Positions 34,559-63,292 of a stretch of 64,000 bases of DNA are shown here, one piece after another (the first letter of the stretch is position 1; each line of letters starts with the position of its first letter). The DNA is from a virus, in IMG/VR virus record IMGVR_UViG_3300021492_000072, one strand, 5' to 3'. Made by a program: the position numbers and the translations under genes. The notes beneath the pieces are model-generated. The model made no database searches and was not told the DNA's origin. It was given only the letters and a program-made list of their open reading frames with translations.

Positions 34559-34564
34559 TACTTT

Positions 34565-34945
34565 TCACCATCTTAACCTATGTTTTACACCCCGATATGC
34601 TAAGTATTTCGTACACTCCAACAAAAGAAGGTTTCTAATCTCAGGACGCTTCATTGTATCTGACAACCAACTAACGAGATCCGTCACTGAATAGAACCAC
34701 GGAGTATAAGGAGCAAAAAGATCGACTTCAAACCGCTTCGCATATACAATCCAATCAGGAAACTTCAGCTTAAACAACTTCCAAAACTCGCGAGAGTGAG
34801 GTTCAACCTTTATATAGTAACGAGAAGGAATCCACCCCCATACATCATCAACCGAAGCTGACTGTACATCACAGCTTACTGAACGCAACACACTTGTTAA
34901 GAAAGGCCACCCAAATAGTCTCTGGTTTGTATTACACTTTCTCAC
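34565..34945 (-). CDS. family A protein, divergent subfamily copy
   Basis: Same scaffold as 34199. Confidence 0.7.
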   Translation of the reverse strand: MRKCNTNQRLFGWPFLTSVLRSVSCDVQSASVDDVWGWIPSRYYIKVEPHSREFWKLFKLKFPDWIVYAKRFEVDLFAPYTPWFYSVTDLVSWLSDTMKRPEIRNLLLLECTKYLAYRGVKHRLRW

Positions 34946-35301
34946 CTACTAACCCGCGCTTCTATATTATACTTTGCACACTCTAATAGAAGCAGGCCCC
35001 TAACTCCTGGTCGCCTTATTGTATCTGACAACCATGCGATCAAATCTGACACCGAATAAAACCGGGGGGTGTAAAGAGAGAAAAAGTGATCGAATCTATA
35101 TCGCTTCGCATGAACGATCCAGTCAGGAAACTTTAGTTTAAATATCCTCCAGAACTCGTGAGAGTAAGGCTCGACCTTTACGTAGTAACGAGGAGGGTCC
35201 CATCCCCACAAAACATCAATTGAAGCTGTTTGTACATCTCGGTTTACTGACTGTAACACACACGTTAATAAAGGCCACTTTACACAACCTTTGGCCTGCA
35301 T
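34942..35301 (-). CDS. family A protein, divergent subfamily copy
   Basis: Same scaffold as 34199. Confidence 0.7.
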   Translation of the reverse strand: MQAKGCVKWPLLTCVLQSVNRDVQTASIDVLWGWDPPRYYVKVEPYSHEFWRIFKLKFPDWIVHAKRYRFDHFFSLYTPRFYSVSDLIAWLSDTIRRPGVRGLLLLECAKYNIEARVSR

Positions 35302-35309: not shown

Positions 35310-35501
35310 TTACCTCTTTAACTCTCTTGGGTCTTCTAGTTGCTTAACCATTACCTGAGGAGCCCTGCCCAAGAAACATTTATAATTAAAAATCTCCACC
35401 GCTTCCTTTTTGGCTAGCTCGTACGCCTCCTTTACACTAGGAGCATCAATCTCAAAGCTTACCGCATCACCACGATATTTTGCTACTACACTAAACTTCA
35501 T
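35310..35501 (-). CDS. hypothetical protein
   Basis: Coupled ORF. Confidence 0.5.
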   Translation of the reverse strand: MKFSVVAKYRGDAVSFEIDAPSVKEAYELAKKEAVEIFNYKCFLGRAPQVMVKQLEDPRELKR

Positions 35502-36177
35502 CCTTCTTCACCTCCGAGATTTCTCGTTGTATAACTTCAAGTGCTTTAGCCCAAAACGCCTTACTTCCCGCCTTTAATCGCCACAACCTTCCACTTGGCG
35601 ACTCTAGTGCACATATGACATCTCGTAACACCTTCTTGAACAACTCACCCTTCTGAGGTCCAACTACAGTTTGACCTCTAGCTAATATAAGTCGCATAGA
35701 ACAATAGGTGCAGTTACCAGGTGACGCCCACCCAAAGCTAACGACCACCTCTACATCTACTTCGCCCTTATACCAACCCCGCAAAACAGCAGGCTTGACG
35801 TCTGTGAATTCAACTGACTCTAACTCAAAAGGAGTGCGAAGCGCAGCCCGCCGGATTTGAGCTCGCATCTCCGCACGCCTCTTCCGCTCAAGTGCTAGAT
35901 TTCGCTCGTTTCGCTCGTACGATTCAAGACATTGTCTAATAAATTCACGTCCTTGTTGTGTTAGACTCAGATTTACATATCCACGCCTCACCCACCTACA
36001 AAGTGGTAAGGCTACACTCGTAGTGCAACCCCCACAGTCACGAACAAAGTCCGTATCCATGCATCTCAAATCAGGAGCATAGACTTCCTCTTTTGGGCTT
36101 CCAACTTGTATAAATTTCGACTTCAGTTTATAAATCTCCTCAAAAAGTTCCTCATCTGTTGCCTTCCTAAAATTCAT
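35491..36177 (-). CDS. hypothetical protein, family B
   Basis: C-terminal FELE...G.Y...KVLRDVI....P.GRLW.LK domain. Confidence 0.65.
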   Translation of the reverse strand: MNFRKATDEELFEEIYKLKSKFIQVGSPKEEVYAPDLRCMDTDFVRDCGGCTTSVALPLCRWVRRGYVNLSLTQQGREFIRQCLESYERNERNLALERKRRAEMRAQIRRAALRTPFELESVEFTDVKPAVLRGWYKGEVDVEVVVSFGWASPGNCTYCSMRLILARGQTVVGPQKGELFKKVLRDVICALESPSGRLWRLKAGSKAFWAKALEVIQREISEVKKDEV

Positions 36178-36187: not shown

Positions 36188-36271
36188 CCTCTTAACATGA
36201 TCCTCCACACCTCAACTTTGTCCCTAGTAATTTATATATGCTTTACAGTCCACTTAGTATAAACAATCGTC
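36188..36271 (-). pseudogene. relic duplicate of the 3' end of the exonuclease gene
   Basis: Similar to 36719-36806 (cctcttaacatgatcc.ccacacctcaactttgtc.ctagtaa...gtataaacaatcgtc). Confidence 0.75.
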
Positions 36272-36742
36272 ACCTCCCCCACCCCCCGCTATTTCTCGCA
36301 TAACCTCAAGTGCTTTAGTCCAAAACACCTCACTTCCCGACTTCAGTCGCCACAACCTTCCACTTGGCGACTCCATTGTATGTATGACATCTCGTAACAC
36401 CTTTCTGTATAACTCCCCCACCTGAGGCTCAACTATAACCCGGTCTCCAACTAGTACAAGACGTATAGCGCAAAAAAGCATCGACCACCCAAAACTAACA
36501 ACCGCTTCTACGTCCACTCCACCTTTATACCAACCCCGTAAAGCGGCGGGCTTAGTGCCCGTAAACTCAACCGTTTCCAACTCAAAAGGAGCGCGAAGCA
36601 CGGTACGGTGGATTTGAGCGCGTGCCTCCGCACGCCTCTTCCGCTCATTTCGCTCGTACGATTCAAGACACTGACTAGTGAATTCACGTCCTTGTTGTTT
36701 TAGACTCAAATTTACATATCCTCTTAACATGATCCCCCACAC
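36254..36742 (-). CDS. hypothetical protein, family B (recent duplicate of 35491)
   Basis: High protein and DNA similarity to 35491-36177. Confidence 0.65.
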   Translation of the reverse strand: MWGIMLRGYVNLSLKQQGREFTSQCLESYERNERKRRAEARAQIHRTVLRAPFELETVEFTGTKPAALRGWYKGGVDVEAVVSFGWSMLFCAIRLVLVGDRVIVEPQVGELYRKVLRDVIHTMESPSGRLWRLKSGSEVFWTKALEVMREIAGGGGGDDCLY

Positions 36743-37248
36743 CTCAACTTTGTCTCTAGTAACTTATATGCCTTACAACAGTAATTCACTTGGTATAAAC
36801 AATCGTCTAACGCGTTATGTGTTTTTGGGTCTCCGCTCTTCTCCTCCCTCTTAAGTCCCGCCAAAAACACCAAAGTCCTAATATCCCTCCAACGGGTATA
36901 GTGAAATGGGAGTTTTTGCCCGAGTTTTTGACAGACACTCTCAAGAATTTCTATATCGTAAAAATGCGACCAAACGTAGGCTTTTTTATCGATCTTACAG
37001 AAAGCCGTTAGCTCTTCCAGAGCCTTTGTCAAAGGAATAGTATCCTTATCCCAAGTAATCCTGTCTTTATTCTCCAGCCAAAATTTGAGTTCTTTATATT
37101 TGATCTCAAGGCCTTTATCCAAACAGGACTTTATATTAACGTTTACAAGAAAAGTTTCTCCGGTTTTTCCTGCCCAATCAAAGTACACTGCGCCGATCTG
37201 GGTAATAACCGTACCTAGCGTCTCAAGGTCCAACATTATATTACTCAC
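36724..37248 (-). CDS. DEDDh 3'-5' exonuclease (Rv2179c-like)
   Basis: MLDLETLG, IGAV, D..IL, RD.RT, HNALDD. Confidence 0.85.
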   Translation of the reverse strand: MSNIMLDLETLGTVITQIGAVYFDWAGKTGETFLVNVNIKSCLDKGLEIKYKELKFWLENKDRITWDKDTIPLTKALEELTAFCKIDKKAYVWSHFYDIEILESVCQKLGQKLPFHYTRWRDIRTLVFLAGLKREEKSGDPKTHNALDDCLYQVNYCCKAYKLLETKLRCGGSC

Positions 37249-37600: not shown

Positions 37601-37842
37601 TCTTCCTCCTCCTTCTCAAGTTGTCGGTAAAATTCAGACCATCCCTTCTCCACATATGTATACGGGGCGTACTTCTCTAGAAGCCCCTTCTTCACTAACC
37701 GATCGCACCTACACCGAACAGCATTAAAAGAAAGCTCTATACCAAGTTCATACCTAATCTGGTCCTTCAAAAAGCCCACATGCGTTGGCATAATAGTATG
37801 AGACACAATAACTTCATTGACCTCTTTACTTCGCACACACAA
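37597..37842 (-). CDS. small winged-helix-like protein
   Basis: AVR.RC.RLVKKGLLEK. Confidence 0.45.
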   Translation of the reverse strand: MCVRSKEVNEVIVSHTIMPTHVGFLKDQIRYELGIELSFNAVRCRCDRLVKKGLLEKYAPYTYVEKGWSEFYRQLEKEEEE

Positions 37843-38293
37843 TCTCCCCTATTGTAAGTAATACTCTCCAGACATACTCTTTACTTCGCGCCCCGCAGTA
37901 TCGGTACAAAACACGGACTAGGTCGGGCTCGGTAGCGAACAACTTTCGTAGTATATAACCAACAGCCTGTATGTTCGTCTCAATACCAAATAAGTCCCTT
38001 TGTGTCTTTATAATCCCAGCCTGCTTGAGTTCCGGAACCCAAACAGGCATGATTTGACCCAAGCCAATCGCACCCGTAGGGGACACAGCATATGGGTCAA
38101 AGTGGCTTTCAACTTTACATATAGCTAAAATTAAGATAGGGTGCGCTTCTTGGTGTGCACACTGCACAACCAGCCATGCCTGTGATCTCGTTAACCGACT
38201 GTTCTTTAACACCCAATCTACTTCATCTCCGTAAGCGCAAATAGCAAAACACAAAAGGGCGCCTACTATACAGCTTCTCACTCCTCCAACCAA
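37826..38293 (-). CDS. lytic transglycosylase (SLT domain) with signal peptide
   Basis: ILAI.KVES.F.P.AVS..GAIGLGQIMP, NI..G..IL, Y. Confidence 0.88.
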   Translation of the reverse strand: MVGGVRSCIVGALLCFAICAYGDEVDWVLKNSRLTRSQAWLVVQCAHQEAHPILILAICKVESHFDPYAVSPTGAIGLGQIMPVWVPELKQAGIIKTQRDLFGIETNIQAVGYILRKLFATEPDLVRVLYRYCGARSKEYVWRVLLTIGEIVCAK

Positions 38294-39112: not shown

Positions 39113-39775
39113 TTAGCGTATCAAGCGCTTCCATGCTGTTACACCAACACGAAGCTTCCACAATCTACCCTTAGGGGAGGTCTTTATAGCACGAATAACA
39201 TCAGTTAACACCTTCTGCCGCAGTCTCCCTTTCCGAGCCGACATCGTAATAACCACCCCACCCCTTGATAGCCTTACGATCGTAGGGATGCCATCAACAA
39301 TCATGACTTCAGCGCGTACGTCTCCATATCTACCACAAACCCCAAAAGCGGGACCAAGGCTAGATTCGGGTCCGCGAACTATGTGAAGGTCGTTAAGTTC
39401 AAAAGAATTATATAACACATCCAAACGCAAAGCCGCCTTTGAATTACAGAGTTGAGAAGCAACTCCTTGAACGAAACCCTCCAATTCAGACGCTACAACG
39501 TCACGGAACGCCTGTAAAACGCGACCGATCCGCTTTCCCTTTATAAAGTTAAGCTCACTCGGTGCGTCAATTATCCGACCATTCTGGTTGAACGGACTTT
39601 TTATCACAAACTCAAAGGGGTGAAAGATCCATCTCGAACCCCTGTTGGACAGGAGTTCCTTCACCTCTTCCACTGTTGAGGCCTCGAAATCGGTCACATA
39701 GTCTCCCTCAAAACTAACCAATAATGCCTGATACACCTCACAAACCCCTTTGCGACAGTTAACGGTGATAATCAA
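39113..39775 (-). CDS. two-domain hypothetical protein with family B C-terminal domain
   Basis: FELND...G.YG...KVLTDVIRAIK.SPKGRLWKL. Confidence 0.6.
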   Translation of the reverse strand: MIITVNCRKGVCEVYQALLVSFEGDYVTDFEASTVEEVKELLSNRGSRWIFHPFEFVIKSPFNQNGRIIDAPSELNFIKGKRIGRVLQAFRDVVASELEGFVQGVASQLCNSKAALRLDVLYNSFELNDLHIVRGPESSLGPAFGVCGRYGDVRAEVMIVDGIPTIVRLSRGGVVITMSARKGRLRQKVLTDVIRAIKTSPKGRLWKLRVGVTAWKRLIR

Positions 39776-47732: not shown

Positions 47733-48179
47733 TCAGTCAGTCGTGGACCATACTCTCAAACCAACGTCCAAAAACTCCTTAATGCCATAGTCTCGCACAA
47801 CCCACTTCACTTTCCCCGCCGTTACCTGCTTTTGTATATGCAACAGTGCATGGTAAACAAGGGCTTCCCTAGTTTGATCTGACGATCTGTCCCAAAAAGG
47901 CTTCCACACTTCAACCACATAGTCGTACCCCGTCAGATATGACCACTTTCCTACCGTGCGTGAGCACTTTCCAAAAAACGAGCTCTTCTCAGCCTTGTAA
48001 AACAGGAACTTAATCACAGCCTCTTCTGCGTCACTCAACTGAAACTTCTTAATCAGTTTCTTCGCTAGCGCTTCCACTTCCGGGGCGTCCACGTACTTCT
48101 CGGCTTCCTTCGATGAAATTACCTCCTCAACAACCTCCTCTAATGTCATCTCTTTAGCCATTTTTTTCCTCCTTACCAA
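47733..48179 (-). CDS. phage metallopeptidase-like protein (HExxH changed to HALLH)
   Basis: G.C.R....W..L.GYD.V.....W......REALVYHALLHI. Confidence 0.65.
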   Translation of the reverse strand: MVRRKKMAKEMTLEEVVEEVISSKEAEKYVDAPEVEALAKKLIKKFQLSDAEEAVIKFLFYKAEKSSFFGKCSRTVGKWSYLTGYDYVVEVWKPFWDRSSDQTREALVYHALLHIQKQVTAGKVKWVVRDYGIKEFLDVGLRVWSTTD

Positions 48180-49131: not shown

Positions 49132-49184
49132 CAGACTTCCTTTTTAAAAAATTTTAATTTTAAAAAAATTTTTTTTGACCGCAC

Positions 49185-49520
49185 CTACGCACAAAGACGT
49201 AAGAGCCTTCTCTCACCTTGCGAGAGGTTCAGCACATCTTCTAACCAACTCAACAGATCCTCTTTCGCGATAAATTCAGGGCAAGCAAGAGACACCAACG
49301 TTCCAACTCTATCAATCATAATCCGCGCACCGTACTTAAGCGCGCGCGTGGCAGCCCCAGGATATCTTCTCCTAAAGGCGCTCCAGTACCCCAAATGATT
49401 TGGGCTAACATGAATGTGATAACACCCATTAACACGTACTATAACCGCAGATTCCACAAGCATATGCGGCACTGCGGAGGACATTATGTAAGTCAGCATC
49501 CACACTGTGCCTTCTCGCAA
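49185..49520 (-). CDS. family A paralogue
   Basis: AVP/H..YW/CPEF/GER scaffold. Confidence 0.8.
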   Translation of the reverse strand: MREGTVWMLTYIMSSAVPHMLVESAVIVRVNGCYHIHVSPNHLGYWSAFRRRYPGAATRALKYGARIMIDRVGTLVSLACPEFIAKEDLLSWLEDVLNLSQGERRLLRLCA

Positions 49521-49813
49521 ATGTATAGCAACCTTCGCTCTCCTTGTGACAAACCTAGTGTGTCCGCCAACCAGTCTAACAATCCTTTTTGTGTAGAAAA
49601 CTCAGGACAAGTGCCACTCATTTTTGCACCACGCTCTTGCGCCAATCTCACACTATTAGAGTACCTCCTCTTAAACTGTGCCCAATATTCACTATGGTCA
49701 GGGGTGACTAAAATAAAGTACCACCGCCCCTTAACCAAGTCAGTGATCACCGCATAGCTAACTCGCGCGTTAGGTACAGCATGTGATAGTATGTGAGTTA
49801 ACATTTGCATCAA
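49493..49813 (-). CDS. family A paralogue
   Basis: Scaffold motifs. Confidence 0.8.
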   Translation of the reverse strand: MMQMLTHILSHAVPNARVSYAVITDLVKGRWYFILVTPDHSEYWAQFKRRYSNSVRLAQERGAKMSGTCPEFSTQKGLLDWLADTLGLSQGERRLLYICEKAQCGC

Positions 49814-50145
49814 AGTAAACTAAGCTCCAACAGTTTTCTCTCACCCTGTGACAAACTTAGTGTGTCCGCTAACCAACCCAGCAAATTCTCTTTTGAATGA
49901 AACACCGGGCACTGTCGGCGCCCTAACTCAAGATCAAGTTCTTCAACACCACGTGCGCAAGCTAATCGTTTATAGTGAGGATACTTTTGTCTAAAACATC
50001 CCCAAAAGTCCCTGTGGTGGGGCTCAACTACTATATAATAGTCACTTATGCCCCACTTAGGCAAATCCCAATGTTCTATCCTCGCCGATTCAACATACAC
50101 TTCTGGTACAGCTCGTGCTAATAATTGAGTCAAAAACCGAGACAA
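49810..50145 (-). CDS. family A paralogue
   Basis: Scaffold motifs. Confidence 0.8.
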   Translation of the reverse strand: MSRFLTQLLARAVPEVYVESARIEHWDLPKWGISDYYIVVEPHHRDFWGCFRQKYPHYKRLACARGVEELDLELGRRQCPVFHSKENLLGWLADTLSLSQGERKLLELSLL

Positions 50146-50465
50146 CCTCCATACCCCTCACACAGAAGTAGAAGTTTTCTTTCACCCTGAGTCAATTTAA
50201 GCACATCAGATAGCCACTCAAACAAATCCCCCAAATCAGCAAATTCTGGGCAAAAGCCACGAGCTATTGATTCCTTTGTTGCTCCCTTTGAGAACGCTAT
50301 TTTCGCCCCATACGGATAAGTTTCCCTAAACCGCTCCCAATACCCGTAGTGATTCGGTCCAACTAAAATCCAATACAACCCTGACGATGCTCTAACCACT
50401 GTTGCTGACTCAACACGTACTTTTGGTACAGCATCCGCTAGTAATTGAGTCAAAACTTGCGGCAC
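50130..50465 (-). CDS. family A paralogue
   Basis: Scaffold motifs. Confidence 0.8.
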   Translation of the reverse strand: MPQVLTQLLADAVPKVRVESATVVRASSGLYWILVGPNHYGYWERFRETYPYGAKIAFSKGATKESIARGFCPEFADLGDLFEWLSDVLKLTQGERKLLLLCEGYGGCLGF

Positions 50466-50791
50466 CTTTTACACCTCTTACATAGAAGTAATAAAAGATT
50501 TCTTTCACCTTGAGGTAACTCGAGCACCTCAAACAACCAATTAAGCAAATTTTCCAAATCATCAAATTCCGGGCAAAAGCCGCGTAGCCCTAGTGAGTCT
50601 TTCCGTACATGATATGTAAACGCAACTTGCTTCCAGTGAGGATAAATCTCCCCAAACCGCTCCCAATACTTCTCATGATCCGGGTCAACTAAAATCCAGT
50701 ACACATTCGGTAACGCTCTAATCACCGTCGCTGACTTAACGTACACATCTGGCACAGCGTTCGCTAGTAAGCGAGTTAAAAACCGGGGCAT
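50450..50791 (-). CDS. family A paralogue
   Basis: Scaffold motifs; start trimmed to MPRF. Confidence 0.8.
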   Translation of the reverse strand: MPRFLTRLLANAVPDVYVKSATVIRALPNVYWILVDPDHEKYWERFGEIYPHWKQVAFTYHVRKDSLGLRGFCPEFDDLENLLNWLFEVLELPQGERNLLLLLCKRCKRCRKF

Positions 50792-51126
50792 CCTCTGCGC
50801 CCTACACATAAAAGCAGTAGTTTTCTTTCACCGTAATCCAGCCCAAGCACATCAAACAACCAGTTAAGTAAATTTTCCAAAACATCAAACTCTGGACAAA
50901 AGCCACACGAGTTTAACGAGTCCTTCCGTGCATGATATGTAAATGCAACTCGTTTCCAGTGAGGATAAATCTCTTTAAACTGCCACCAGTACCTATAATG
51001 ATTTGGCTCAACGCTAATCCAGTACGACCACAACCATGGTGCTCTGAATGTTTTGACCAACGACGCTGACTCAACACGCACATCAGGCACGACACGCGCT
51101 AATAACGAGGTCAATATCTGCGACAT
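50776..51126 (-). CDS. family A paralogue
   Basis: Scaffold motifs. Confidence 0.8.
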   Translation of the reverse strand: MSQILTSLLARVVPDVRVESASLVKTFRAPWLWSYWISVEPNHYRYWWQFKEIYPHWKRVAFTYHARKDSLNSCGFCPEFDVLENLLNWLFDVLGLDYGERKLLLLCVGRRGCPGF

Positions 51127-51461
51127 TCTCTAACCTTCTCATATAGAAGTAAAAGATTTCTTTCACCTTGAGTCAACTCGAGTACCTCAAACAACCAATT
51201 AAGCAAATTTTCCAAATCAGCAAATTCTGGGCAAAAACCTTCGATCATCAGCGATTTATCCGTCGCCTTATATGTGCGCGCTATCTGTACACAACTTGGA
51301 AAGGTCTTCCTAAACCGTCTCCAGTACTCATAATGACGCGGATCAACCCGAATCCAGCACAAACCCACTGACGATCTAACCAACGCCGCTGATTCAACTT
51401 TTACATTGGGTACAGCTCGCTCTAGCAACCAAGCTAAACATTCTAGAGTGACCTTTGACAT
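51111..51461 (-). CDS. family A paralogue
   Basis: Scaffold motifs. Confidence 0.8.
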   Translation of the reverse strand: MSKVTLECLAWLLERAVPNVKVESAALVRSSVGLCWIRVDPRHYEYWRRFRKTFPSCVQIARTYKATDKSLMIEGFCPEFADLENLLNWLFEVLELTQGERNLLLLYEKVRECRRY

Positions 51462-51787
51462 GACTGTGCCTCAACACTAAGTTGTATAAACTTCCGTTCA
51501 CCCTGTGATAAACCTAGCGTATCCGCCAACCAATTAATTAAATCTTCTCTCACACGAAATACAGGACAGGATCCAAAAGGTACTAGTGAAGATTCCAATG
51601 CTTTATATTCACACGCGACTCGTTTCCAGTGTGGGTAGGTCCTCTTAAAGCGCTCCCAATAATAGCCATGATTTGGCTCAACCCAAATCCAATAATGGCC
51701 CGTAAACGTGCGAACCACCGCCGAAGTTGGCTCAACTCGTACGTCAGGCACGGCGCGGCGTAATATTGTTGTTAACACTCGAGTCAT
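51443..51787 (-). CDS. family A paralogue
   Basis: Scaffold motifs; start trimmed to MTRV. Confidence 0.8.
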   Translation of the reverse strand: MTRVLTTILRRAVPDVRVEPTSAVVRTFTGHYWIWVEPNHGYYWERFKRTYPHWKRVACEYKALESSLVPFGSCPVFRVREDLINWLADTLGLSQGERKFIQLSVEAQSCQRSL

Positions 51788-51789
51788 GA

Positions 51790-52122
51790 TCACACCCCTG
51801 CAGAAAGACGTAGAAGTTTGCGCTCTCCCTGTGTCAGACCCAGTGTGTCTGCTAACCAACCTATCAAGTCCTCTTTTGAAAGAAACTCTGGACAGAGCCA
51901 ACCAGTCATAAGTGAGTACCCAACAGCTCCATATTCATATGCTACCCGGCTAAAGTGAGGGTACATCTCTTGGAAACGAGTCCAGTACACATCATGATAC
52001 GGTTCCACACGGAGCCAATACCTACTCCCTAGGGGCCCAAAATCCCGCTTAACCACTTCCGCCGAGCCAACGTAAACAGTAGGTACAGCGTGAGACAATA
52101 CAAGAGCGACAAACTGCATCAT
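51790..52122 (-). CDS. family A paralogue
   Basis: Scaffold motifs; ATGA-coupled start. Confidence 0.8.
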   Translation of the reverse strand: MMQFVALVLSHAVPTVYVGSAEVVKRDFGPLGSRYWLRVEPYHDVYWTRFQEMYPHFSRVAYEYGAVGYSLMTGWLCPEFLSKEDLIGWLADTLGLTQGERKLLRLSAGV

Positions 52123-52439
52123 TTGACTCCTTTGTACAAGCGTAGGAAGTCTCTCTCCCCCTGTGTTAGGTTCAGTACATCCATCACCCAACCTAACAGA
52201 TCCTCCTGTGTTGGAAACTTAGGACAACAATGCCCTAAAGTAAACCGCTCCGCTCCGTGTTTAAGAGCCAAATGCCTATAATGAGGATACTTTATCCGAA
52301 AGTAACCCCAAAAGTCTACATGATGTGGTTCAACATAAATAAAGTATCCCTCCTTTGATGACCACCGCTTCACCTCTACCGACGCTACATACACCTCAGG
52401 TACGGCGCGAGAAAGTAAAAATGTTAAAAGTTGTGTCAT
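52119..52439 (-). CDS. family A paralogue
   Basis: Scaffold motifs; start trimmed to MTQLL. Confidence 0.8.
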   Translation of the reverse strand: MTQLLTFLLSRAVPEVYVASVEVKRWSSKEGYFIYVEPHHVDFWGYFRIKYPHYRHLALKHGAERFTLGHCCPKFPTQEDLLGWVMDVLNLTQGERDFLRLYKGVK

Positions 52440-52794
52440 CCGTTGTGCCTCCCCACAGCCGTAGAAGGTTGCGCTCACTATGGGTCAACTCAAGCACATC
52501 AAACAACCAGTTCATCAAGTCTCGCGCTGTAGTAAACTCTGGGCAGAAGCAATGCAAATCAGGTATTGTTCTATGCTTATACGCAATCTGTTTCCAGTTT
52601 GGGTGAGCCTCTTTGAAACACTTCCAGTACGTGTAGTGATCTGGATCAACCCGAATCCAGTATGTGGTTCGACCTGGCACAACCACCTGGATCCTGTGTT
52701 CAGTTTGATCTGTCCCAACAATTTCTGCGGAGACAACTCGTACTCCACTCACAGCACGAGACAAAATATATGTTAAAAACCTAGACCGTTTCAT
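52396..52794 (-). CDS. family A paralogue
   Basis: Scaffold motifs; long loop 1. Confidence 0.8.
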   Translation of the reverse strand: MKRSRFLTYILSRAVSGVRVVSAEIVGTDQTEHRIQVVVPGRTTYWIRVDPDHYTYWKCFKEAHPNWKQIAYKHRTIPDLHCFCPEFTTARDLMNWLFDVLELTHSERNLLRLWGGTTDDTTFNIFTFSRRT

Positions 52795-53105
52795 AATCCT
52801 ACATCAAGAAGCAAGAGTTTACGCTCACCATCAGTCAAACCTAATATCTCTGATAGCCAATCAGTCAACGCGTCCCGCGAGCAAAACTCTGGGCAAGCAA
52901 CCTCATGGACTCTCGCGTTACGCTTCCGTGCCAAACGTGTACAATCAGGATACCTCTCTCTGAACCGCTTCCAATAACCAGATTGATCGGGTGTAACGTA
53001 AATGTAAAACCATGTTCCACTACGGTATCGAACGCAAGATATCTCCACTGAGTCAATACACGCGCCAGGCACAGCGTGGGAGAGTATAGACATTAACAAA
53101 CTCAT
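52791..53105 (-). CDS. family A paralogue
   Basis: Scaffold motifs. Confidence 0.8.
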   Translation of the reverse strand: MSLLMSILSHAVPGACIDSVEISCVRYRSGTWFYIYVTPDQSGYWKRFRERYPDCTRLARKRNARVHEVACPEFCSRDALTDWLSEILGLTDGERKLLLLDVGL

Positions 53106-53431
53106 ACCCCTCCTTCGCGAAGTTGCAAAAGATTTCGCTCCCCTTTTGACACATTTAGCACATCAAACAACCAATCTAACAAGTTCTCTAAAGAAGTAAA
53201 CTCAGGGCAGTTCCCAGAAGGTATTAACGAAGCCCCTAACGCTTCATACTTACACACAACCCGCTTCCACTGTGGATAGACTCTTTTAAAGCGTTCCCAA
53301 TAATAACCATGACTCGGCTTAACTAAAAGCCAGTATCGGCCTCTCACTGACTCAACAACTTCCACAGAGTCAACTCGCACTTCACTCACAGCTTGAGATA
53401 AGATATATGCTAAAAACCCAGACCGTTTCAT
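53102..53431 (-). CDS. family A paralogue
   Basis: Scaffold motifs. Confidence 0.8.
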   Translation of the reverse strand: MKRSGFLAYILSQAVSEVRVDSVEVVESVRGRYWLLVKPSHGYYWERFKRVYPQWKRVVCKYEALGASLIPSGNCPEFTSLENLLDWLFDVLNVSKGERNLLQLREGGV

Positions 53432-53748
53432 AATCCTACATCAAGAAGTAAGAGTTTACGCTCACCACGCGTCAACCCCAGCACCTTAGACAACCACTCC
53501 ACTAAACCTCTTCGCGTGGAAGACGTGGGCCAGCAAACTTCAGCGGCCGATAGTGGTACTACTCTATATTTGCGAACCATCTGCTCCCAATAAGGGTAAG
53601 CTCTTTCAAAACGCTCCCAATAACTGTAGTGATCTGGCTCAACCCAAATCCAATACAGATCCCCTACTTTAGTCAACGTTGCAGAATCAATCGGAACCCC
53701 ACTTACAGCTCGAGTCAAAATATATGTTAAAAACTTAAACCGTCCCAT
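53428..53748 (-). CDS. family A paralogue
   Basis: Scaffold motifs (CPEF replaced by WPTS). Confidence 0.8.
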   Translation of the reverse strand: MGRFKFLTYILTRAVSGVPIDSATLTKVGDLYWIWVEPDHYSYWERFERAYPYWEQMVRKYRVVPLSAAEVCWPTSSTRRGLVEWLSKVLGLTRGERKLLLLDVGL

Positions 53749-54062
53749 AGTCCTACATCGAGGAGTAAGAGTTTACATTCACCTTGTGTCAACTTCAACG
53801 TATCAGACAACCACCCCACTAAAGCCTTTTGTGTAGGAGACGCTGGCCATCGAATTTCGTCTACCGTTAGAATTGTTAACTCATATTTATAAGCCACTTG
53901 CTCCCAGTGGGGGTAAGTTCTTTCAAACCAATCCCAATATGCATAATGGCTAGGAGCGACTAGGAACCAGTACAAATCTCCTACTCCTTTGATCAACGTC
54001 ACTGAATCGACCTGGATATTAGGTACAGCGCGAGTCATTATCAGGGTTAACAGTTGAGTCAT
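53727..54062 (-). CDS. family A paralogue
   Basis: Scaffold motifs; ATGA-coupled start. Confidence 0.8.
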   Translation of the reverse strand: MTQLLTLIMTRAVPNIQVDSVTLIKGVGDLYWFLVAPSHYAYWDWFERTYPHWEQVAYKYELTILTVDEIRWPASPTQKALVGWLSDTLKLTQGECKLLLLDVGLWDGLSF

Positions 54063-54406
54063 CCTACTATATTTTCCATGAGGTACAAAAGGTTTCTTTC
54101 TCCCGAGGGTAGGTTTAACACATCTGATAGCCAACTCAACAGCCCTTTCTGAGTAGAAAACACTGGGCACCGGATTCCTGTTACCGATGATAACACCCCA
54201 TACTTACGAGCCAACCGCTTCCAGTGAGGATAAGACTTCTTAAAACGCGTCCAGAACTCATAATGATTTGGGGTAACTAGCAGCCAACACGGACCCCCCA
54301 CCGATCCAACCACCGCCACCGAATCGACCCGCACATCCGGCACAGCTCGCGACAATATAGGCTTCGCCAGTGAAATTTTCCGCAAGTAAGTTAACGACCT
54401 TGACAT
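54059..54406 (-). CDS. family A paralogue
   Basis: Scaffold motifs. Confidence 0.8.
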   Translation of the reverse strand: MSRSLTYLRKISLAKPILSRAVPDVRVDSVAVVGSVGGPCWLLVTPNHYEFWTRFKKSYPHWKRLARKYGVLSSVTGIRCPVFSTQKGLLSWLSDVLNLPSGERNLLYLMENIVG

Positions 54407-54762
54407 CCTATTTTACCCCCCACAAGGTGTAGGAGCCTTCTCTCTCCTGGGGTCAAGTTCAACACATCTGATAGCCAGTCCAACAACTTCTTCTGTGTAG
54501 GAAACACTGGGCAACAGCCTCTCGTTACTGACTGCGACAAAACTCCATGTCTATAAGCCACTTGCCTCCAGTGAGGGTAAGTGCTTTCAAAACGATCCCA
54601 GTACTTATAATGACTGGGAGCGACCAGAAACCAGTACTGATCCCCTAGTGACTTAACTATCACCACTGAGTCAACCCGCGCATCCGGCACAGCACGTGAC
54701 AACAAAGACTTTATTAACATAACTTCCGTAACTTTCCAGAACCGAGTCAACAACCGCGACAT
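54391..54762 (-). CDS. family A paralogue
   Basis: Scaffold motifs; start trimmed to MSRLL. Confidence 0.8.
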   Translation of the reverse strand: MSRLLTRFWKVTEVMLIKSLLSRAVPDARVDSVVIVKSLGDQYWFLVAPSHYKYWDRFESTYPHWRQVAYRHGVLSQSVTRGCCPVFPTQKKLLDWLSDVLNLTPGERRLLHLVGGKIGCQGR

Positions 54763-55148
54763 CTTATTTTGCCCTCCATGAGGTACAAAAGGTTTCTTTC
54801 TCCTGGCGACAAACTCAACACATCTGATAACCAATCAATTAACATACCCCGTGAAGAAAATTCTGGGCACAGTTTACGAGTCGTAACCGAGTAAGTTGCC
54901 GACCTATATTTATATGCAACCTGCTTCCAATGAGGATAGATTTCCCTGAAACGTCTCCAATAAATATAGGGTTCTGGCCTAACATCAAATGAATATGCAA
55001 CTCCCAACTTAACAGGATATGGTGTCATCTTTTTAAAATCGAAAGACCACTGTAAGGGCACAAGCGACTCAACTACCTCTACTTTCCAAACACGTACACC
55101 CGGCACGGCACGCGAAAGTAAAGAGGTCAAGAAACGCGACATAGTCAT
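54747..55148 (-). CDS. family A paralogue
   Basis: Scaffold motifs; long loop 1. Confidence 0.8.
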   Translation of the reverse strand: MTMSRFLTSLLSRAVPGVRVWKVEVVESLVPLQWSFDFKKMTPYPVKLGVAYSFDVRPEPYIYWRRFREIYPHWKQVAYKYRSATYSVTTRKLCPEFSSRGMLIDWLSDVLSLSPGERNLLYLMEGKIRCRGC

Positions 55149-55200
55149 ACTCTCACAAAGTCGTAGCAGCTCTCTGTAACCTTACCATAGCGACGCCAAG

Positions 55201-55539
55201 CTAAGAACGTAGGACGTGATATCGTCTAACCTTATTTAAGTAAAGACGCAAGAAAGTTTCCTCCCCCTTCGTCAAACTCAACACATCGATTACCCATTCA
55301 ATCAAGTCCTCCTCTGTGTTAAACTCCGGGCAAGGTAAGTTAAGCTCAACCACATTATGACGCAATGCAACTTGATCCCAATCTGGGTACACCTCTTTGA
55401 ACAAAAACCAGTACGCTGTGTGGTCTGGGTTTACTTGTATGTAATACGAATCCTTTGTAGACCAACGGACAACTCTCGCCAATGTCACACATGCTCCAGA
55501 CACAGCTCGACTTAGTATTGTTGTTAACACTCGAGACAC
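55201..55539 (-). CDS. family A paralogue
   Basis: Scaffold motifs. Confidence 0.8.
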   Translation of the reverse strand: MSRVLTTILSRAVSGACVTLARVVRWSTKDSYYIQVNPDHTAYWFLFKEVYPDWDQVALRHNVVELNLPCPEFNTEEDLIEWVIDVLSLTKGEETFLRLYLNKVRRYHVLRS

Positions 55540-55569
55540 GGTCGCACCCCAACACCGGAGCGAAAGTTA

Positions 55570-55929
55570 TCACTTCATTATACAAAGATGAAGTAAATTT
55601 CTTTCCCCCTGTGACAAACCCAGTACGTCAACCAACCAATTTATCAAATCTCGCCGGGTAGGAAACTCAGGACAGCACTGTGAATTGATGGACTGTTCCT
55701 CTACTCCATATCTCAAAGCAACCCGCTTATACTGAGGATATCTTCTATGAAAACGTAGCCAGTACTCCACATGGTCAGGATATACAGTTAAAAAGTATGC
55801 TTCTATCCCATCTTCAACCCAGCATGAAACTTTTGCCCTTGTGACACAAACTTCTGGTACAGCTTGTGCCATAACAGCAGTAAGTAACTTTACTGTGTTC
55901 GCCTCACACATTTTTACGTTCTCATACAA
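55570..55929 (-). CDS. family A paralogue
   Basis: Scaffold motifs. Confidence 0.8.
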   Translation of the reverse strand: MYENVKMCEANTVKLLTAVMAQAVPEVCVTRAKVSCWVEDGIEAYFLTVYPDHVEYWLRFHRRYPQYKRVALRYGVEEQSINSQCCPEFPTRRDLINWLVDVLGLSQGERNLLHLCIMK

Positions 55930-56225
55930 AGTCGTAGTAGCTTTCTCTCTCCTCGTGACAAGCTCAATACGTCAACTAACCAATTCACCAAGTCTGCTTT
56001 GTTAAAGAATTTAGGGCAACACCCCGAAATATTGTGCTCACTCACCCCATACCTCAAAGCAATTCGTTTATAATGTGGATACTTCTTATGAAACCGTAAC
56101 CAATACTTCACGTGACTGGGGTAAACAATTATAAAGTACGCCTTAGCCAAGGGGGCGTATGTAATTTCTGCTCTCTCAACAAACACTTCTGGTACAGCTC
56201 GGGCTAGTACACGTGTTAGTGCCAA
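55914..56225 (-). CDS. family A paralogue
   Basis: Scaffold motifs. Confidence 0.8.
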   Translation of the reverse strand: MALTRVLARAVPEVFVERAEITYAPLAKAYFIIVYPSHVKYWLRFHKKYPHYKRIALRYGVSEHNISGCCPKFFNKADLVNWLVDVLSLSRGERKLLRLCMRT

Positions 56226-56228
56226 CGC

Positions 56229-56555
56229 TTACCTCCTCAACGCGAGACGCAACAAAGATCTTTCACCCCCTGTTACGCTCACTACATCAATCAGCCAGTT
56301 AATTAAGTCCTCCTTCGTGTTAAACTCTGGACAGGGGGTGAGAAGCTTAGCCGCGTTATACTTCATTGCCGCTTGCTTCCAATATGGGTAAGTTTTCTTG
56401 AACGTCATCCAATATTCCATATGGACCGGATATACATTTATGAAGTACAGCCCCTCTGAGGGCCAGCGTGTAATCCTCGCCGCTGTAACACGTACATCTG
56501 GAGTAGCTCGATCTAGTATGTGGGCCAGCATCTTGGATACCTTATCCATTATCAT
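56229..56555 (-). CDS. family A paralogue
   Basis: Scaffold motifs. Confidence 0.8.
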   Translation of the reverse strand: MIMDKVSKMLAHILDRATPDVRVTAARITRWPSEGLYFINVYPVHMEYWMTFKKTYPYWKQAAMKYNAAKLLTPCPEFNTKEDLINWLIDVVSVTGGERSLLRLALRR

Positions 56556-56869
56556 CTCTCATAGATTCGTAAAAGCTTTTGTACTCCTTTCGACAAACCC
56601 ACAGTATCTGACAGCCATTTGATAAGATCTTCACGCCTAAAAAACTCAGGACACGTTCTATCAAATTCCTGTTTAACCTCCTTTAAAACATACTTATTGA
56701 CTGCTCGACTCCACTGTGGATAAATCTTCTTAAACCAATACCAATATAGAATATGATTAGGAGTAATACGGATCCAATACAATCCCCTTGGTTCTCTAAC
56801 TATCTCTGCGGACTCAACATACATGCTTGGTACGGCCCGCTCCATAACAACAGTAAGTAAAGTCGACAC
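56552..56869 (-). CDS. family A paralogue
   Basis: Scaffold motifs. Confidence 0.8.
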   Translation of the reverse strand: MSTLLTVVMERAVPSMYVESAEIVREPRGLYWIRITPNHILYWYWFKKIYPQWSRAVNKYVLKEVKQEFDRTCPEFFRREDLIKWLSDTVGLSKGVQKLLRIYER

Positions 56870-56872
56870 AAC

Positions 56873-57256
56873 CTACACCTCACCGCATAGACGCAGAAGC
56901 TTTCTTTCCCCTGGGGATAAGCTTAACACATCTGATAACCAACTAACCAGCGCGTCTTGTGAAGGAAACTCCGGGCACAACCTGCAAACCACAACTGAAT
57001 ACACTGTTGCTCCATATTTAAACGCTAATTGTTCCCAACTAGGAAAGGTCTCCCTGAACCGCCTCCAGTACACATAAGGTCTTGGTCTAACGTCTAAAGT
57101 ATATTTATACTCAGCCTCAATTACACGAAACGCTCCTGTCTCTAAATCCAGACCCCATTGTGGGTTCGTGGGTGATTCAACTACCTGTACTGTCTCAACA
57201 CATACATCAGGTACAGCGTGAGACAAAATGAAAGTTAATAAGTGCGCCACGATCAA
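56873..57256 (-). CDS. family A paralogue
   Basis: Scaffold motifs; long loop 1 like 54747. Confidence 0.8.
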   Translation of the reverse strand: MIVAHLLTFILSHAVPDVCVETVQVVESPTNPQWGLDLETGAFRVIEAEYKYTLDVRPRPYVYWRRFRETFPSWEQLAFKYGATVYSVVVCRLCPEFPSQDALVSWLSDVLSLSPGERKLLRLCGEV

Positions 57257-57552
57257 AACCCCACACTAATCCGTAAAAGATTATTTTCCCCTTGTGTCAG
57301 ATCTAACACATCTGACAACCATTCGATCACCTTAGCTCGTGAAGAAAATATAGGAGTGAGCTTAAAACCCAAAAGACCGTGTCTAAAGCCCACTCGCTTC
57401 CAGTGCGGGTAAAGTTCCATGAACCGCTCCCAGTATCTTTCATGACTCGGTTCAACCTGGATCCAGTACATCTTTGCTGTAAACCATTGTTCAACTCTTG
57501 CCGACTCAACCCGTACATCAGGTACAGCACGTGACAGTATAGTAGCTAGCAC
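57253..57552 (-). CDS. family A paralogue
   Basis: Scaffold motifs. Confidence 0.8.
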   Translation of the reverse strand: MLATILSRAVPDVRVESARVEQWFTAKMYWIQVEPSHERYWERFMELYPHWKRVGFRHGLLGFKLTPIFSSRAKVIEWLSDVLDLTQGENNLLRISVGF

Positions 57553-57881
57553 TTATACCCCGTTTCAGTAAAAAGATGTAATAAGTTCCTCTCTCCCTGT
57601 GGTAAATTTAACGTATCTATTAACCAACCTAATAGTCCTTTTAGTGTAGGAAACTCAGGGCAGAGGCACTCTAAAGTGTGCTTCTTTGCCCCATACCTAA
57701 GAGCTATGTATTTATAGTGAGGATACCTCACATGAAAGCGCTCCCAGTATCTTTTATGATCTGGTTCAACAAACACAACGTAAACCTCATCTGACGTGTC
57801 CGGCTCATCTGACCACCACTTCACCTCAACCGATTCAACTCGCACTTCCGGGACAGCGCGTGACAATATAGCAGTTAACAC
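57546..57881 (-). CDS. family A paralogue
   Basis: Scaffold motifs. Confidence 0.8.
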   Translation of the reverse strand: MLTAILSRAVPEVRVESVEVKWWSDEPDTSDEVYVVFVEPDHKRYWERFHVRYPHYKYIALRYGAKKHTLECLCPEFPTLKGLLGWLIDTLNLPQGERNLLHLFTETGYKC

Positions 57882-58204
57882 TTACACTCCTGTTTCATCA
57901 AAAGTTGTAATAGATTTCTTTCTCCTCGCGGCAGGATCAGTACATCAAACAGCCAGTTCATTAAGTTTTCGGCGGAATCAAATTCAGGGCAAGCAGCCTC
58001 GATTGCCTTCGCTCCGTACTTCAAAGCAACTCGCTCCCAATGAGGATACCGCTTCTTAAACTGTAGCCAATAGCCACTATGATCAGGGTCTACGAAGATG
58101 AAATAGAGACGAACATCCCACCACGGAACATGGGACACCCATGCTGATTCGACTCGCGCACCTGGCACGGCACGTGACATCATGAAAGTTAATAATTGTG
58201 ACAT
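57875..58204 (-). CDS. family A paralogue
   Basis: Scaffold motifs. Confidence 0.8.
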   Translation of the reverse strand: MSQLLTFMMSRAVPGARVESAWVSHVPWWDVRLYFIFVDPDHSGYWLQFKKRYPHWERVALKYGAKAIEAACPEFDSAENLMNWLFDVLILPRGERNLLQLLMKQECKC

Positions 58205-58554
58205 GACTGTGTCCTCATATAGAAACGTAAGAAGTCACGCTTTTTCTGTGTCGCGCACGCTATGCACGCCAACCATCCAAACAAATCCCTCTTCAAAAGA
58301 AACTCAGGACAAAGACACGTGAGGCCTTCCGACCTAGTTAGCGCACCATATCTTTTACACGCCAGAAAAATAAATTCAGGATACCTATCCTGGAACCGAG
58401 ACCAGTACTTGAAGTGCTCAGGAGAAACCTGAAGGTAAAGCCGACTTCCATGGCCGGTTCGTATCTCTACCGAATCAACACATACGTCTGGAACCAACCT
58501 CTGTAACGCTGACCGAATCAATGAATCGCTCCTAATAGCATTAACATATGACAT
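58189..58554 (-). CDS. family A paralogue (divergent)
   Basis: Scaffold motifs. Confidence 0.75.
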   Translation of the reverse strand: MSYVNAIRSDSLIRSALQRLVPDVCVDSVEIRTGHGSRLYLQVSPEHFKYWSRFQDRYPEFIFLACKRYGALTRSEGLTCLCPEFLLKRDLFGWLACIACATQKKRDFLRFYMRTQSCHNY

Positions 58555-58877
58555 CTCACCACATTACTACAAAAACGCAATAGCTTCCTCTCTCCTTGTG
58601 TTAAACCTAATACATCTGACAACCAATTCAACAAGTCCGATGTTGTGGTAAATTCTGGGCAAGCAACATCATCAACCCTCGCGCCACGGCTTCGCGCTAA
58701 GTAGATGCTATCAGGGTACCGTTCTTTAAACCGACCCCAGTACTCCGCGTGATCTGGAGTAACCGCAATGAAGTACTTTTTACTCTTTGTTGATGTCGCA
58801 ACCGACGCGCGACTGACAGATACATCGGATACCGCGCGTGATAGTATGTCAGTTAATAATTGCATTAAATCATCCAA
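58518..58877 (-). CDS. family A paralogue
   Basis: Scaffold motifs. Confidence 0.8.
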   Translation of the reverse strand: MDDLMQLLTDILSRAVSDVSVSRASVATSTKSKKYFIAVTPDHAEYWGRFKERYPDSIYLARSRGARVDDVACPEFTTTSDLLNWLSDVLGLTQGERKLLRFCSNVVRCHMLMLLGAIH

Positions 58878-59242
58878 AGTCGTAATAAGTTTTTTTCACC
58901 CTGGGTTAAACGAAATATATCCGCCAACCAACTGAATAAGTCCTCCTTCGAAGCAAACACAGGACAAAGGTACAGACGACCATCTTTTGCCCTCCGTGAA
59001 GCGTTATACCTTCTACACGCTAAAGTTATAAGCTCACGGTGTTCGTGCCGGAATTGAACCCAGTACGCTTGATGATCCGGTTGAACAAATAGGTAGTACC
59101 CCTGATCACGTGCATTTACCACACGTACTGACTCAACACATACATCCGGAATTAACCTCTGAAACAATGACTGCGTCATCATAGCATTAAATGCAGCAAA
59201 TTTCTCTCTCCGTGTGTCAAGCACAAAGTATCCGACAGCCAA
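58865..59242 (-). CDS. family A paralogue
   Basis: Scaffold motifs; true start probably MMTQS. Confidence 0.78.
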   Translation of the reverse strand: MAVGYFVLDTRREKFAAFNAMMTQSLFQRLIPDVCVESVRVVNARDQGYYLFVQPDHQAYWVQFRHEHRELITLACRRYNASRRAKDGRLYLCPVFASKEDLFSWLADIFRLTQGEKNLLRLWMI

Positions 59243-59475
59243 TTAATCAGGGCCTCTCTTGCACAAAACTCCGGACAAGCAGTGAGTCTAATTTCCGCGC
59301 CGTGCTTTAACGCCAGACGCAAACAATGAGGGTACACCTCTTTGAACCGCCTCCAATACCTGTCATGATTTGGGCTAACTCGGATCCAGCACACTGCTCT
59401 GGCTGGTGATTTAACTATTTCCGCTGACTCAACTTGAACGTCCGGTACAGCCCGACTTAACACCACCGCTAACAT
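59179..59475 (-). CDS. family A paralogue
   Basis: Scaffold motifs. Confidence 0.8.
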   Translation of the reverse strand: MLAVVLSRAVPDVQVESAEIVKSPARAVCWIRVSPNHDRYWRRFKEVYPHCLRLALKHGAEIRLTACPEFCAREALINWLSDTLCLTHGERNLLHLML

Positions 59476-59482
59476 TGTAACA

Positions 59483-59782
59483 CTACTTTATAGTAAGGTG
59501 TAAAAGATTACGCTCACCTGGTGTCAAATCCAACGTGTCCGACAACCAATCAATTAAGTCCTTCTTTGTATGAAACTCTGGGCAAGCAGTGTGAAAAACT
59601 CTTGCGCCACGATCTTGTGCAAGGCCTAAACTGTAAGAGTACCTTTTTCTGAACCGTCCCCAGTACCTAAAATGGTTAGGAGTAATGTGTATATAAAACC
59701 TGTTATCAACACGAGCTATCTCTACTAACTCGACACGAGCATCAGGCACAGCACGTGCCAGTAAACGAGCTAACAATTCCAA
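59483..59782 (-). CDS. family A paralogue (first in transcription order)
   Basis: Scaffold motifs. Confidence 0.8.
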   Translation of the reverse strand: MELLARLLARAVPDARVELVEIARVDNRFYIHITPNHFRYWGRFRKRYSYSLGLAQDRGARVFHTACPEFHTKKDLIDWLSDTLDLTPGERNLLHLTIK

Positions 59783-62061: not shown

Positions 62062-62168
62062 AAAATCCTAACCCATCGTTCGTGACCGTACTGACTAAAT
62101 GGTACCCAGTATATTTCACAACCCAATCCACAATAGCTTTGTACCAGGTTTGAATGGAACGCTGCCTT

Positions 62169-62534
62169 CTACAACGTTCGACTCTTTATCCATCCCTCTG
62201 CAGTAATAACGAAACGTCGTAAATAATCCTCTTTCAACAAGTACAGACGCCCTTTGCTCGTCTCCTTTATCGCGCGAAGCACATCCGTCAGTACCTTCCT
62301 ACAACACTCGCCGTAATACGAAGCGGTTGAGACACCACCATGTTGTAGGACAACATGAGCAAAATCATAGTTTGAAACATGTTGATAACTTACAACCGCC
62401 TTAACTTTATTGTAATGGCCACAGATTACTAAATCTCCTTGTACTCCTCTTGTAACCTCATCTAGATTAAATGTAGCCCGTAAAACAACTCTCCGCATCC
62501 ATTGTCTCTTACGTACCCTAAACGACGCTCTCAC
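62169..62534 (-). CDS. hypothetical protein, family B domain
   Basis: LRATFNLD...G.Y...KVLTDVLRAIK.TSKGRLY.LK. Confidence 0.6.
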   Translation of the reverse strand: MRASFRVRKRQWMRRVVLRATFNLDEVTRGVQGDLVICGHYNKVKAVVSYQHVSNYDFAHVVLQHGGVSTASYYGECCRKVLTDVLRAIKETSKGRLYLLKEDYLRRFVITAEGWIKSRTL

Positions 62535-63199: not shown

Positions 63200-63292
63200 T
63201 CTCCCCTCCTACAAAGGGTTTACATACGTATCAGCAGGAACCCGCGCTTATCGCTAAGATATGGCGCAATGAGCATATGATAATCATATAGT

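Follow-up and report, generated by a model that had tools for sequence, protein, structure and literature searches.

The subject of this report is a block of 32 tandem paralogous genes in an uncultured sediment virus, record IMGVR_UViG_3300021492_000072 of IMG/VR, of which a stretch of 64,000 nucleotides (nt; hereafter the window) was analysed. The block is compact and co-oriented, lies on the minus strand (49185-59782) and consists of back-to-back open reading frames (ORFs), all of them intact in a check of the ORF list. The products align over their full length with a mean pairwise identity of about 45%. A profile of the family re-finds each of the 32 copies over nearly all of its 107 positions with E-values of 1e-34 to 1e-43, far beyond chance, so that ORFs, full-length alignment and profile all bear out the tandem of 32 intact paralogues reported in a first-pass annotation. 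The base composition of the array equals that of the rest of the window. The proteins form a virus-only multigene family of small, soluble, cytoplasmic members, and no copy contains a hydrophobic stretch of membrane-span length or a signal-like stretch. Comparisons were made with G002, an IMG/VR record of 131 kb that is about 98% identical to the window; with the virus contigs of a metagenome-assembled genome (MAG), G001, at about 90%; and with L035, a 21-kb contig that is 83-93% identical in the flanks.

The family combines a fixed scaffold with two variable segments. With residues numbered as in the copy at 59179-59475, five are invariant across the 32 copies (P35, W41, F44, P68 and W79) and fifteen are conserved in at least 90% of them (A9, V10, V15, V33, H37, Y40, P49, C67, F70, L76, L80, L86, G89, E90 and L94). 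The motifs RAVP, YW.RF...YP, CPEF, WL.DVL and GER.LL, already picked out at first reading, match these conserved columns, and all copies share the N-terminal segment LT..L.RAVP.V.V.S. Most of the invariant residues are hydrophobic or proline. The near-invariant H37 and C67 are absent from three diverged copies (see below) and from distant members, which makes a catalytic or metal centre unlikely. Several conserved polar residues look exposed (R8, D82 and G89-E90-R91). The two segments, V1 (5-25 residues, following the first strand) and V2 (5-14 residues, preceding CPEF), were initially described as variable in both sequence and length; each indeed occurs in 32 distinct versions in the 32 copies. 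Isoelectric points (pI) range from 4.9 to 10.1 and net charges from -4 to +11, indicating diverse surfaces.

The copies are given here in reading order, each with its coordinates (all on the minus strand), its length in amino acids (aa) and its profile E-value. Copy 1 (59483-59782, 99 aa, 9.7e-36) has a start that overlaps the upstream gene, of 160 aa, by 13 nt. Copy 2 (59179-59475, 98 aa, 1.2e-41) is one of two that were modelled; it is followed by copies 3 (58865-59182, 105 aa, 1.5e-35) and 4 (58518-58865, 115 aa, 5.6e-40), and by copy 5 (58189-58554, 121 aa, 5.5e-34), which is without the GER motif. Beyond copy 6 (57875-58204, 109 aa, 2.1e-40), copy 7 (57546-57881, 111 aa, 3.6e-40) carries a V1 of 12 residues, copy 8 (57253-57552, 99 aa, 5.6e-39) has the cysteine of CPEF replaced and copy 9 (56873-57250, 125 aa, 9.1e-39) exhibits a long V1 hairpin of 25 residues. 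The G002 orthologue of copy 10 (56552-56869, 105 aa, 2.4e-38) is frameshifted. Copies 11 (56229-56549, 106 aa, 1.3e-40), 12 (55914-56225, 103 aa, 1e-41) and 13 (55570-55911, 113 aa, 2.9e-42) lead to copy 14 (55201-55539, 112 aa, 2.2e-39), which sits between the only two real gaps of the array. Copy 15 (54747-55142, 131 aa, 1.7e-38), the second one modelled, also has a V1 of 25 residues. It precedes copies 16 (54391-54762, 123 aa, 6.8e-42) and 17 (54059-54406, 115 aa, 1.2e-39) and the most acidic member, copy 18 (53727-54062, 111 aa, 8.3e-38), with a pI of 4.9. Next come copies 19 (53428-53748, 106 aa, 7.3e-37), 20 (53102-53431, 109 aa, 6e-42; see below for its divergence from G002) and 21 (52791-53105, 104 aa, 8.4e-36), then copy 22 (52396-52794, 132 aa, 6.6e-39), whose V1 has 18 residues. 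The remainder comprises copies 23 (52119-52439, 106 aa, 9.2e-42), 24 (51790-52122, 110 aa, 5.1e-41), 25 (51443-51787, 114 aa, 5.7e-43), 26 (51111-51461, 116 aa, 8.1e-41), 27 (50776-51126, 116 aa, 3.3e-43), 28 (50450-50791, 113 aa, 7.3e-43), 29 (50130-50465, 111 aa, 9.2e-41), 30 (49810-50145, 111 aa, 9.5e-39) and 31 (49493-49810, 105 aa, 2.8e-37). Copy 32 (49185-49499, 104 aa, 1.3e-35) is the last of the array; its counterpart in L035 is broken.

Start codons were re-placed, as inferred positions, 8-23 residues (mostly 8-16) ahead of the AVP motif, usually behind a GAGG/GGAG-like stretch. With these starts, 22 of the 31 junctions overlap (seven by exactly 16 nt, six by 4 nt), 7 are spaced by 2-7 nt, and only two are real gaps, of 30 and 58 nt. 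The C-terminal tails of many copies hold a cysteine (...GC.GF, ...RC.KF). At the one junction checked by hand (50450-50465), the Cys codon is the ATG/GTG start of the next gene in the overlapping frame; the tail cysteine was rejected as a motif and is taken as a by-product of the common 16-nt overlaps.

Beyond the array, a profile scan of the window identified only three weaker copies, in tandem on the minus strand at 34199-35301 (E 1e-16 to 1e-18): copy A (34942-35301, 119 aa, 1.6e-16), copy B (34565-34945, 126 aa, 4.7e-16) and copy C (34199-34558, 119 aa, 2.9e-18). As a group, and explicitly in copy A, these lack both the cysteine of CPEF and the GER motif. The trio is kept in G002 (25122-26263) and one of the three in G001. 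At least three assemblies of the complete genome exist (151.8-152.9 kb); their start points differ, which suggests a circular or circularly permuted genome. It holds one further family member beyond each window end, about 5 kb upstream of the array (G002 56581-56961) and about 1.3 kb past the window start (10001-10306 of the complete-genome contig L031). The window thus contains 35 copies and G002 38, and the family amounts to about 37 copies per 152-kb genome, roughly 12 kb or about 8% of it.

AlphaFold2 models, for which the folding alignment consisted of the 32 paralogues only, give a confident fold for the 98-aa copy 2, with a mean pLDDT (the per-residue model confidence) of 94.7. The model contains helices at residues 2-9, 37-47, 51-57, 73-83 and 88-97, a hairpin (17-23 / 28-34) and, between helices 51-57 and 73-83, a loop closed off by a very small bridge (61, 69-70). 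In the model the N-terminal helix belongs to the fold proper (block pLDDT 96). The 131-aa copy 15, with the longest V1, is predicted to share this core and to extend the hairpin into an arm of two 16-residue strands (20-35 and 40-55; pLDDT 84); its V2 is of low confidence. In the models, V1 therefore makes up the tip of a hairpin arm whose strands can lengthen from 7 to 16 residues, and V2 forms a flexible loop. The columns that vary among paralogues lie at the hairpin tip, in the V2 loop and at alternating helix positions. A homodimer prediction scored 0.39 against a mark of 0.42; one control reached 0.35.

The predicted fold, a five-helix core with a beta-hairpin, is apparently unmatched among solved and predicted structures. 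For both models the best Foldseek match in the PDB has an E-value of 0.24, and VIA-align against 48,161 chains gave best Z-scores of only 3.6 and 3.2, values of 7-8 being usual even when a model has no clear match. The best BFVD match has E 0.02 and a TM-score (TM) of 0.30, TM does not exceed 0.48 in the ESM Atlas, and language-model neighbours scored 0.83, at noise level. Sequence libraries were equally silent. Ten copies gave no Pfam match at E <=0.1; in PHROGs the best match reached only E 0.041, in one copy; none of the 32 copies matched a PADLOC family and NCBIfam returned only scattered noise for them; and neither a PDB sequence search nor tblastn against GenBank phages gave anything usable. 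The statement that the family is not a recognised one therefore holds across all of these libraries. The likeness of LT.GER.LL.L to the first helix of a LuxR/sigma-region-4 helix-turn-helix was considered and rejected: the protein ends directly after this helix and there is no such Pfam match.

A profile search of 1.84 billion representative proteins retrieved 96 matches at E <=0.001 (16 at E <=1e-30), all viral wherever the context is visible. For about two thirds of these matches, identity to the copies of the three compared genomes does not exceed 60%, which implies that other related viruses carry their own versions. The visible contexts are viral contigs, often with tandem copies (three in a row in L005 and in L028), and contig L025 carries dispersed copies and one fusion of 222 aa. 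This protein, P0094, has an additional N-terminal part without a Pfam family. Two other apparent fusions, P0080 and P0083, were rejected as spurious: both are repetitive and of low complexity, and they match repeatedly, each time over just 25-35 residues. A scan of 60 other genomes from the class around G001 yielded no copy. As judged from sequence, the family is confined to uncultured viruses of one lineage and is without cellular homologues.

The age of the copies and the selection acting on them were followed in 100 copies from the window, G002 and G001. Most groups in the tree are one-to-one(-to-one) orthologues, the internal branches are long and the tips short, and adjoining genes are often sister groups, a pattern indicating an old expansion by local duplication. 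Synonymous divergence (dS) between paralogues is near saturation (median 2.0); together with the mean identity of about 45%, the value for the closest pair (0.72) also points to an old expansion. The near-identical tandem copies that would signal a recent amplification of the poxvirus K3L type are absent. Ratios of non-synonymous to synonymous divergence (dN/dS) are simple Nei-Gojobori counts over non-independent pairs. Between the window and G002, the corresponding ratio of raw proportions (pN/pS) is 0.20 for the array, close to other small virus genes (0.21), and 0.03 for large core genes. Against G001 (dS about 0.23), dN/dS is 0.055 in scaffold columns, 0.28-0.36 in columns variable among paralogues and 0.82, over few sites, in rare inserted residues. 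By region, 36 pooled orthologue pairs that include L035 give 0.39 for V1, 0.18 for V2, 0.06 for CPEF and 0.18-0.41 elsewhere.

The scaffold is thus far from neutral and most copies have intact orthologues. The loops, for which the first-pass annotation had proposed a test for high dN/dS, are not fast-evolving between orthologues: they differ between copies but are conserved within each copy. Purifying selection on orthologues in three related genomes argues that the diversity is old and that each copy is retained for itself. Nothing points to a continuing arms race fought through point mutations. Among paralogues, pN is about equal to pS at the variable columns, which hints at fast change after duplication but, given the near-saturated dS, is only suggestive. 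A diversity-generating retroelement does not appear to be the source of the diversity, since no RVT_1 reverse transcriptase was found in G002 (the 131-kb record, not the whole 152-kb genome).

Change between close relatives takes place instead at the level of whole copies, which are gained, lost and exchanged. The array, bounded by the same genes in each case, numbers 32 copies in the window and 34 in G002, and in L035 it has about 13 intact and 2 broken ones. G002 carries an additional frameshifted copy (47801-48127) whose window orthologue, copy 10, is intact, and one G002 copy has an orthologue in G001 and none in the window. Copy 20 and its counterpart in G002 share only 90% identity, with about 23 synonymous differences and 9 non-synonymous ones, whereas its neighbours are about 99% identical. 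This lone divergent copy suggests a single-copy exchange between strains by recombinational replacement.

The genome resembles that of a tailed virus and encodes a family A DNA polymerase, a DnaB-like helicase, a RecA/UvsX-like recombinase, an SbcC-like protein and an anaerobic ribonucleotide reductase. In G002, genes from 1 to about 80 kb are on the minus strand, with the array at 40-51 kb, upstream of the replication genes, and a plus-strand block occupies 95-125 kb. The nearest gaps upstream of the array in the window are 62062-62168 and 63200-63292. After the last copy lies an A/T-rich spacer of 53 nt on the minus strand (49132-49184; runs A8, T7, T6 and A5), which ends 10 nt before the next start codon. 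This spacer is probably the end of a transcription unit and may combine a terminator with a promoter; given the gaps and the spacer, a single unit spanning about 62.1 to 49.2 kb is plausible. Within the array, promoter- or terminator-like matches are no commoner than in shuffled sequence. The promoter at 63.8 kb, from which an early position of the array had been argued, consists of one sigma-70-like match, and it is no evidence for timing because its region is poorer in such matches (15) than shuffled sequence (25.8). Neither an Rfam family nor a tRNA was detected in the window.

A few genes downstream of the array, a PhageMetallopep gene (PF18894, 47733-48179, minus strand, E 1.3e-24) is the sole Pfam match among ten flanking genes; neither these nor the copies gave a match to a Pfam immunity or toxin domain. 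The order array, small genes, metallopeptidase is retained in the more distant relative L035/L036. Farther along the minus strand, the window encodes an SLT-domain, murein-degrading lytic transglycosylase (37826-38293, Pfam E 1.2e-13), an Rv2179c-like 3'-5' exoribonuclease (36724-37248, E 1.2e-26) and a Ku-domain protein (31695-32333, E 6.6e-22). All-against-all BLASTP also revealed a second paralogue family with four minus-strand members (35491-36177, 36254-36742, 39113-39775 and 62169-62534) and six further two-member families. A stretch of 755 nt without a credible gene (25506-26260) lies downstream of a gene for 300 aa (26261-27163). In the complete-genome contigs L031 and L033, a region about 1-12 kb past the window start contains QueC, which adjoins the outlying family member mentioned above; on the window side of these loci there is a gene for GCHY-1 (GTP cyclohydrolase), and PTPS was detected solely in the relative L025/L026. 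The combination of QueC, GCHY-1 and PTPS suggests a putative 7-deazaguanine DNA modification. The same region carries two glycosyltransferases and a HicB-like gene, and in one 152.9-kb assembly a TnpB/OrfB_IS605 insertion, absent from the other assemblies, adjoins QueC.

The evidence on the host is mixed. G001, the MAG that holds the virus contigs, is titled 'uncultured archaeon', and two family members were deposited under Candidatus Bathyarchaeota MAGs (RLI16719.1 and RLI43053.1). These three co-binnings point weakly to an archaeal host, possibly of the Bathyarchaeia. The murein transglycosylase conflicts with the archaeal labels, and the replication and recombination proteins, which are of bacterial type, likewise point away from an archaeal host. 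A search of the 32 genomes of the genus of G001 with 60 kb of the window, aimed at spacers of clustered regularly interspaced short palindromic repeats (CRISPR), gave no host link; there were only two 28-nt matches, neither with adjoining repeats. McrA was not found in G001 and two congeners. Archaeal AmoA was not found in them either, a result that is uninformative as the control was also negative.

We favour, with a probability of about 0.4, a reading in which the array encodes a putative co-expressed panel of intracellular binders directed against variable host targets. The array would lie in the pre-replicative section of the leftward genes and be transcribed as one long mRNA, whose coupled translation would ensure that all versions are made together. 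Each version would bind a different partner inside the infected cell through its own arm, loop and variable helix faces. The likeliest partners would be variable host proteins, for example defence or toxin components, which the virus would neutralise. The repertoire would adapt by gain, loss and exchange of whole copies among related viruses rather than by rapid point mutation. A diversified binder repertoire was already the proposal of the first-pass annotation; it stays the best reading. In its favour are the predicted structure with two indel-tolerant elements and diverse surfaces, the selection on individual copies, the turnover of the repertoire, the operon-like packing, the virus-only distribution and the position of the array, on the strand of the replication genes, upstream of them and far from the plus-strand block. 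Several observations weigh against it. The purifying selection on the loops between orthologues fits a stable specific function of any kind, the conserved R8, D82 and G89-E90-R91 hint at a common function or partner for which the model gives no explanation, and the PADLOC scan of the 32 copies matched no known anti-defence or defence family. A bolder version remains doubtful: a putative germline-encoded, antibody-like panel of about 37 specific inhibitors with a new fold, each disarming its own immune or toxin protein of the host, with the virus possibly infecting Bathyarchaeia and tuning its host range by copy swapping.

The charge of the proteins suits another function equally well. With a pI of at least 8.7 in 25 of the 35 copies, they might be nucleic-acid binders (transcription factors, RNA binders or architectural DNA proteins) whose hairpin arms read differing sequences. 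DNA-bending proteins of the HU/IHF type use a two-stranded arm of a shape similar to the extendable one predicted here. Roles as transcription factors or structural DNA-binding proteins have also been proposed for a comparable expansion in Bacillus phage G (Iyer et al., PMC7824862). However, the other ten copies are neutral or acidic, down to a pI of 4.9 and a net charge of -4, few basic positions are conserved across copies, and neither a DNA- or RNA-binding fold nor such a Pfam family was matched. A 152-kb virus is moreover unlikely to need some 37 specific regulators, and on balance we consider nucleic-acid binding unlikely, about half as probable as the favoured panel of binders. It is improbable that the copies are virion-associated cargo or structural accessories, such as injected internal head proteins addressed by the N-terminal helix. 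The conservation of the segment LT..L.RAVP.V.V.S in all copies would suit such an address, and the internal proteins of T4 offer a precedent for injected anti-restriction proteins. Yet the array shares the minus-strand block with the replication genes and is separated by tens of kb from the plus-strand block of G002 (95-125 kb), and the N-terminal helix is modelled as integral to the fold.

The conserved polar residues R8, D82 and G89-E90-R91 could alternatively form a common interface through which the copies self-assemble, as homo- or hetero-oligomers, into a mixed scaffold or compartment whose assembly is tuned by their diversity. Co-translation from one mRNA, as predicted here, would favour mixed assembly, but assembly alone hardly explains loops that are unique to, and individually conserved in, all 32 copies; we give this little credence, about as little as a virion role. 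Finally, unequal recombination might have produced the array as a neutral or selfish by-product, or it might stem from a recent amplification for dosage (a 'gene accordion'), its copies having no functions of their own. The variable copy number among relatives, the presence of some broken copies and the frequency with which adjoining copies are mutual closest relatives are in line with such an origin. Against it, a dS of at least 0.72 even to the closest paralogue and an identity of about 45% reveal an old expansion, orthologue dN/dS lies at 0.06-0.4 in every region and 32 of 32 copies are intact. The selection data largely exclude this explanation, which is the least probable of all.

If the proteins are indeed binders of specific host proteins, they would provide about 37 ready probes or inhibitors for an uncultured sediment microbe, possibly a Bathyarchaeon, without genetic tools. 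A panel of inhibitors would represent both a new class of anti-defence proteins and a new natural binder scaffold. A fold without neighbours that tolerates arms of 7 to 16 residues per strand is of interest in two ways, for the study of fold space and as a compact scaffold for binders. The pattern of evolution, too, departs from the usual picture of an arms race, as old, distinct and individually conserved copies are combined with a turnover of whole copies between close relatives. This pattern can be tested with more genomes of the virus group.

Among known systems, the closest in copy number is the lineage-specific Zn-ribbon expansion of Bacillus phage G, which has about 35 copies (Iyer et al. 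2021, PMC7824862). The copy number of the present array, initially thought extreme for a virus, is therefore not unique. Both cases consist of tens of diverged small paralogues in one large viral genome and are lineage-restricted. However, the two families are not homologous: the phage G proteins are Zn-ribbons with paired CxxC motifs, whereas the present ones have one near-invariant cysteine, helices and a hairpin, and no neighbour in the PDB. The present copies also form one contiguous, coupled-looking block, unlike the phage G expansion. Archaeal viruses encode several uncharacterised paralogues of anti-CRISPR (Acr) proteins per genome, which are small early proteins such as AcrID1 (PMC11065993). 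The likeness lies in the multiple small paralogues per genome and in a host that is possibly archaeal here, but the copy number of the Acr families is an order of magnitude lower. No Acr appeared among the PDB-wide Foldseek, VIA-align or hidden Markov model results, lists that a distant kinship could escape.

Two further systems resemble the array in outline. The MGF110, MGF360 and MGF505 families of African swine fever virus and the ankyrin and Kelch families of poxviruses are tandem, diverged paralogues near non-structural regions, whose strain-variable number is tied to host range and immune evasion. Their hosts, folds and sizes differ from those considered here, and there is no homology. 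Immunity arrays of polymorphic toxin systems are likewise composed of tandem, diverged paralogues of about 100 aa, each thought to neutralise a different partner. Here, however, neither a known immunity family nor a toxin gene was recognised in or beside the array, and the locus is encoded by a virus rather than being a cellular conflict locus. What is new compared with all of these is the protein family itself, whose fold is apparently without a match, the focus of the variability on a loop and a hairpin of adjustable length, the devotion of about 8% of a mid-sized genome to one family, and the persistence of old, individually conserved copies alongside whole-gene turnover.

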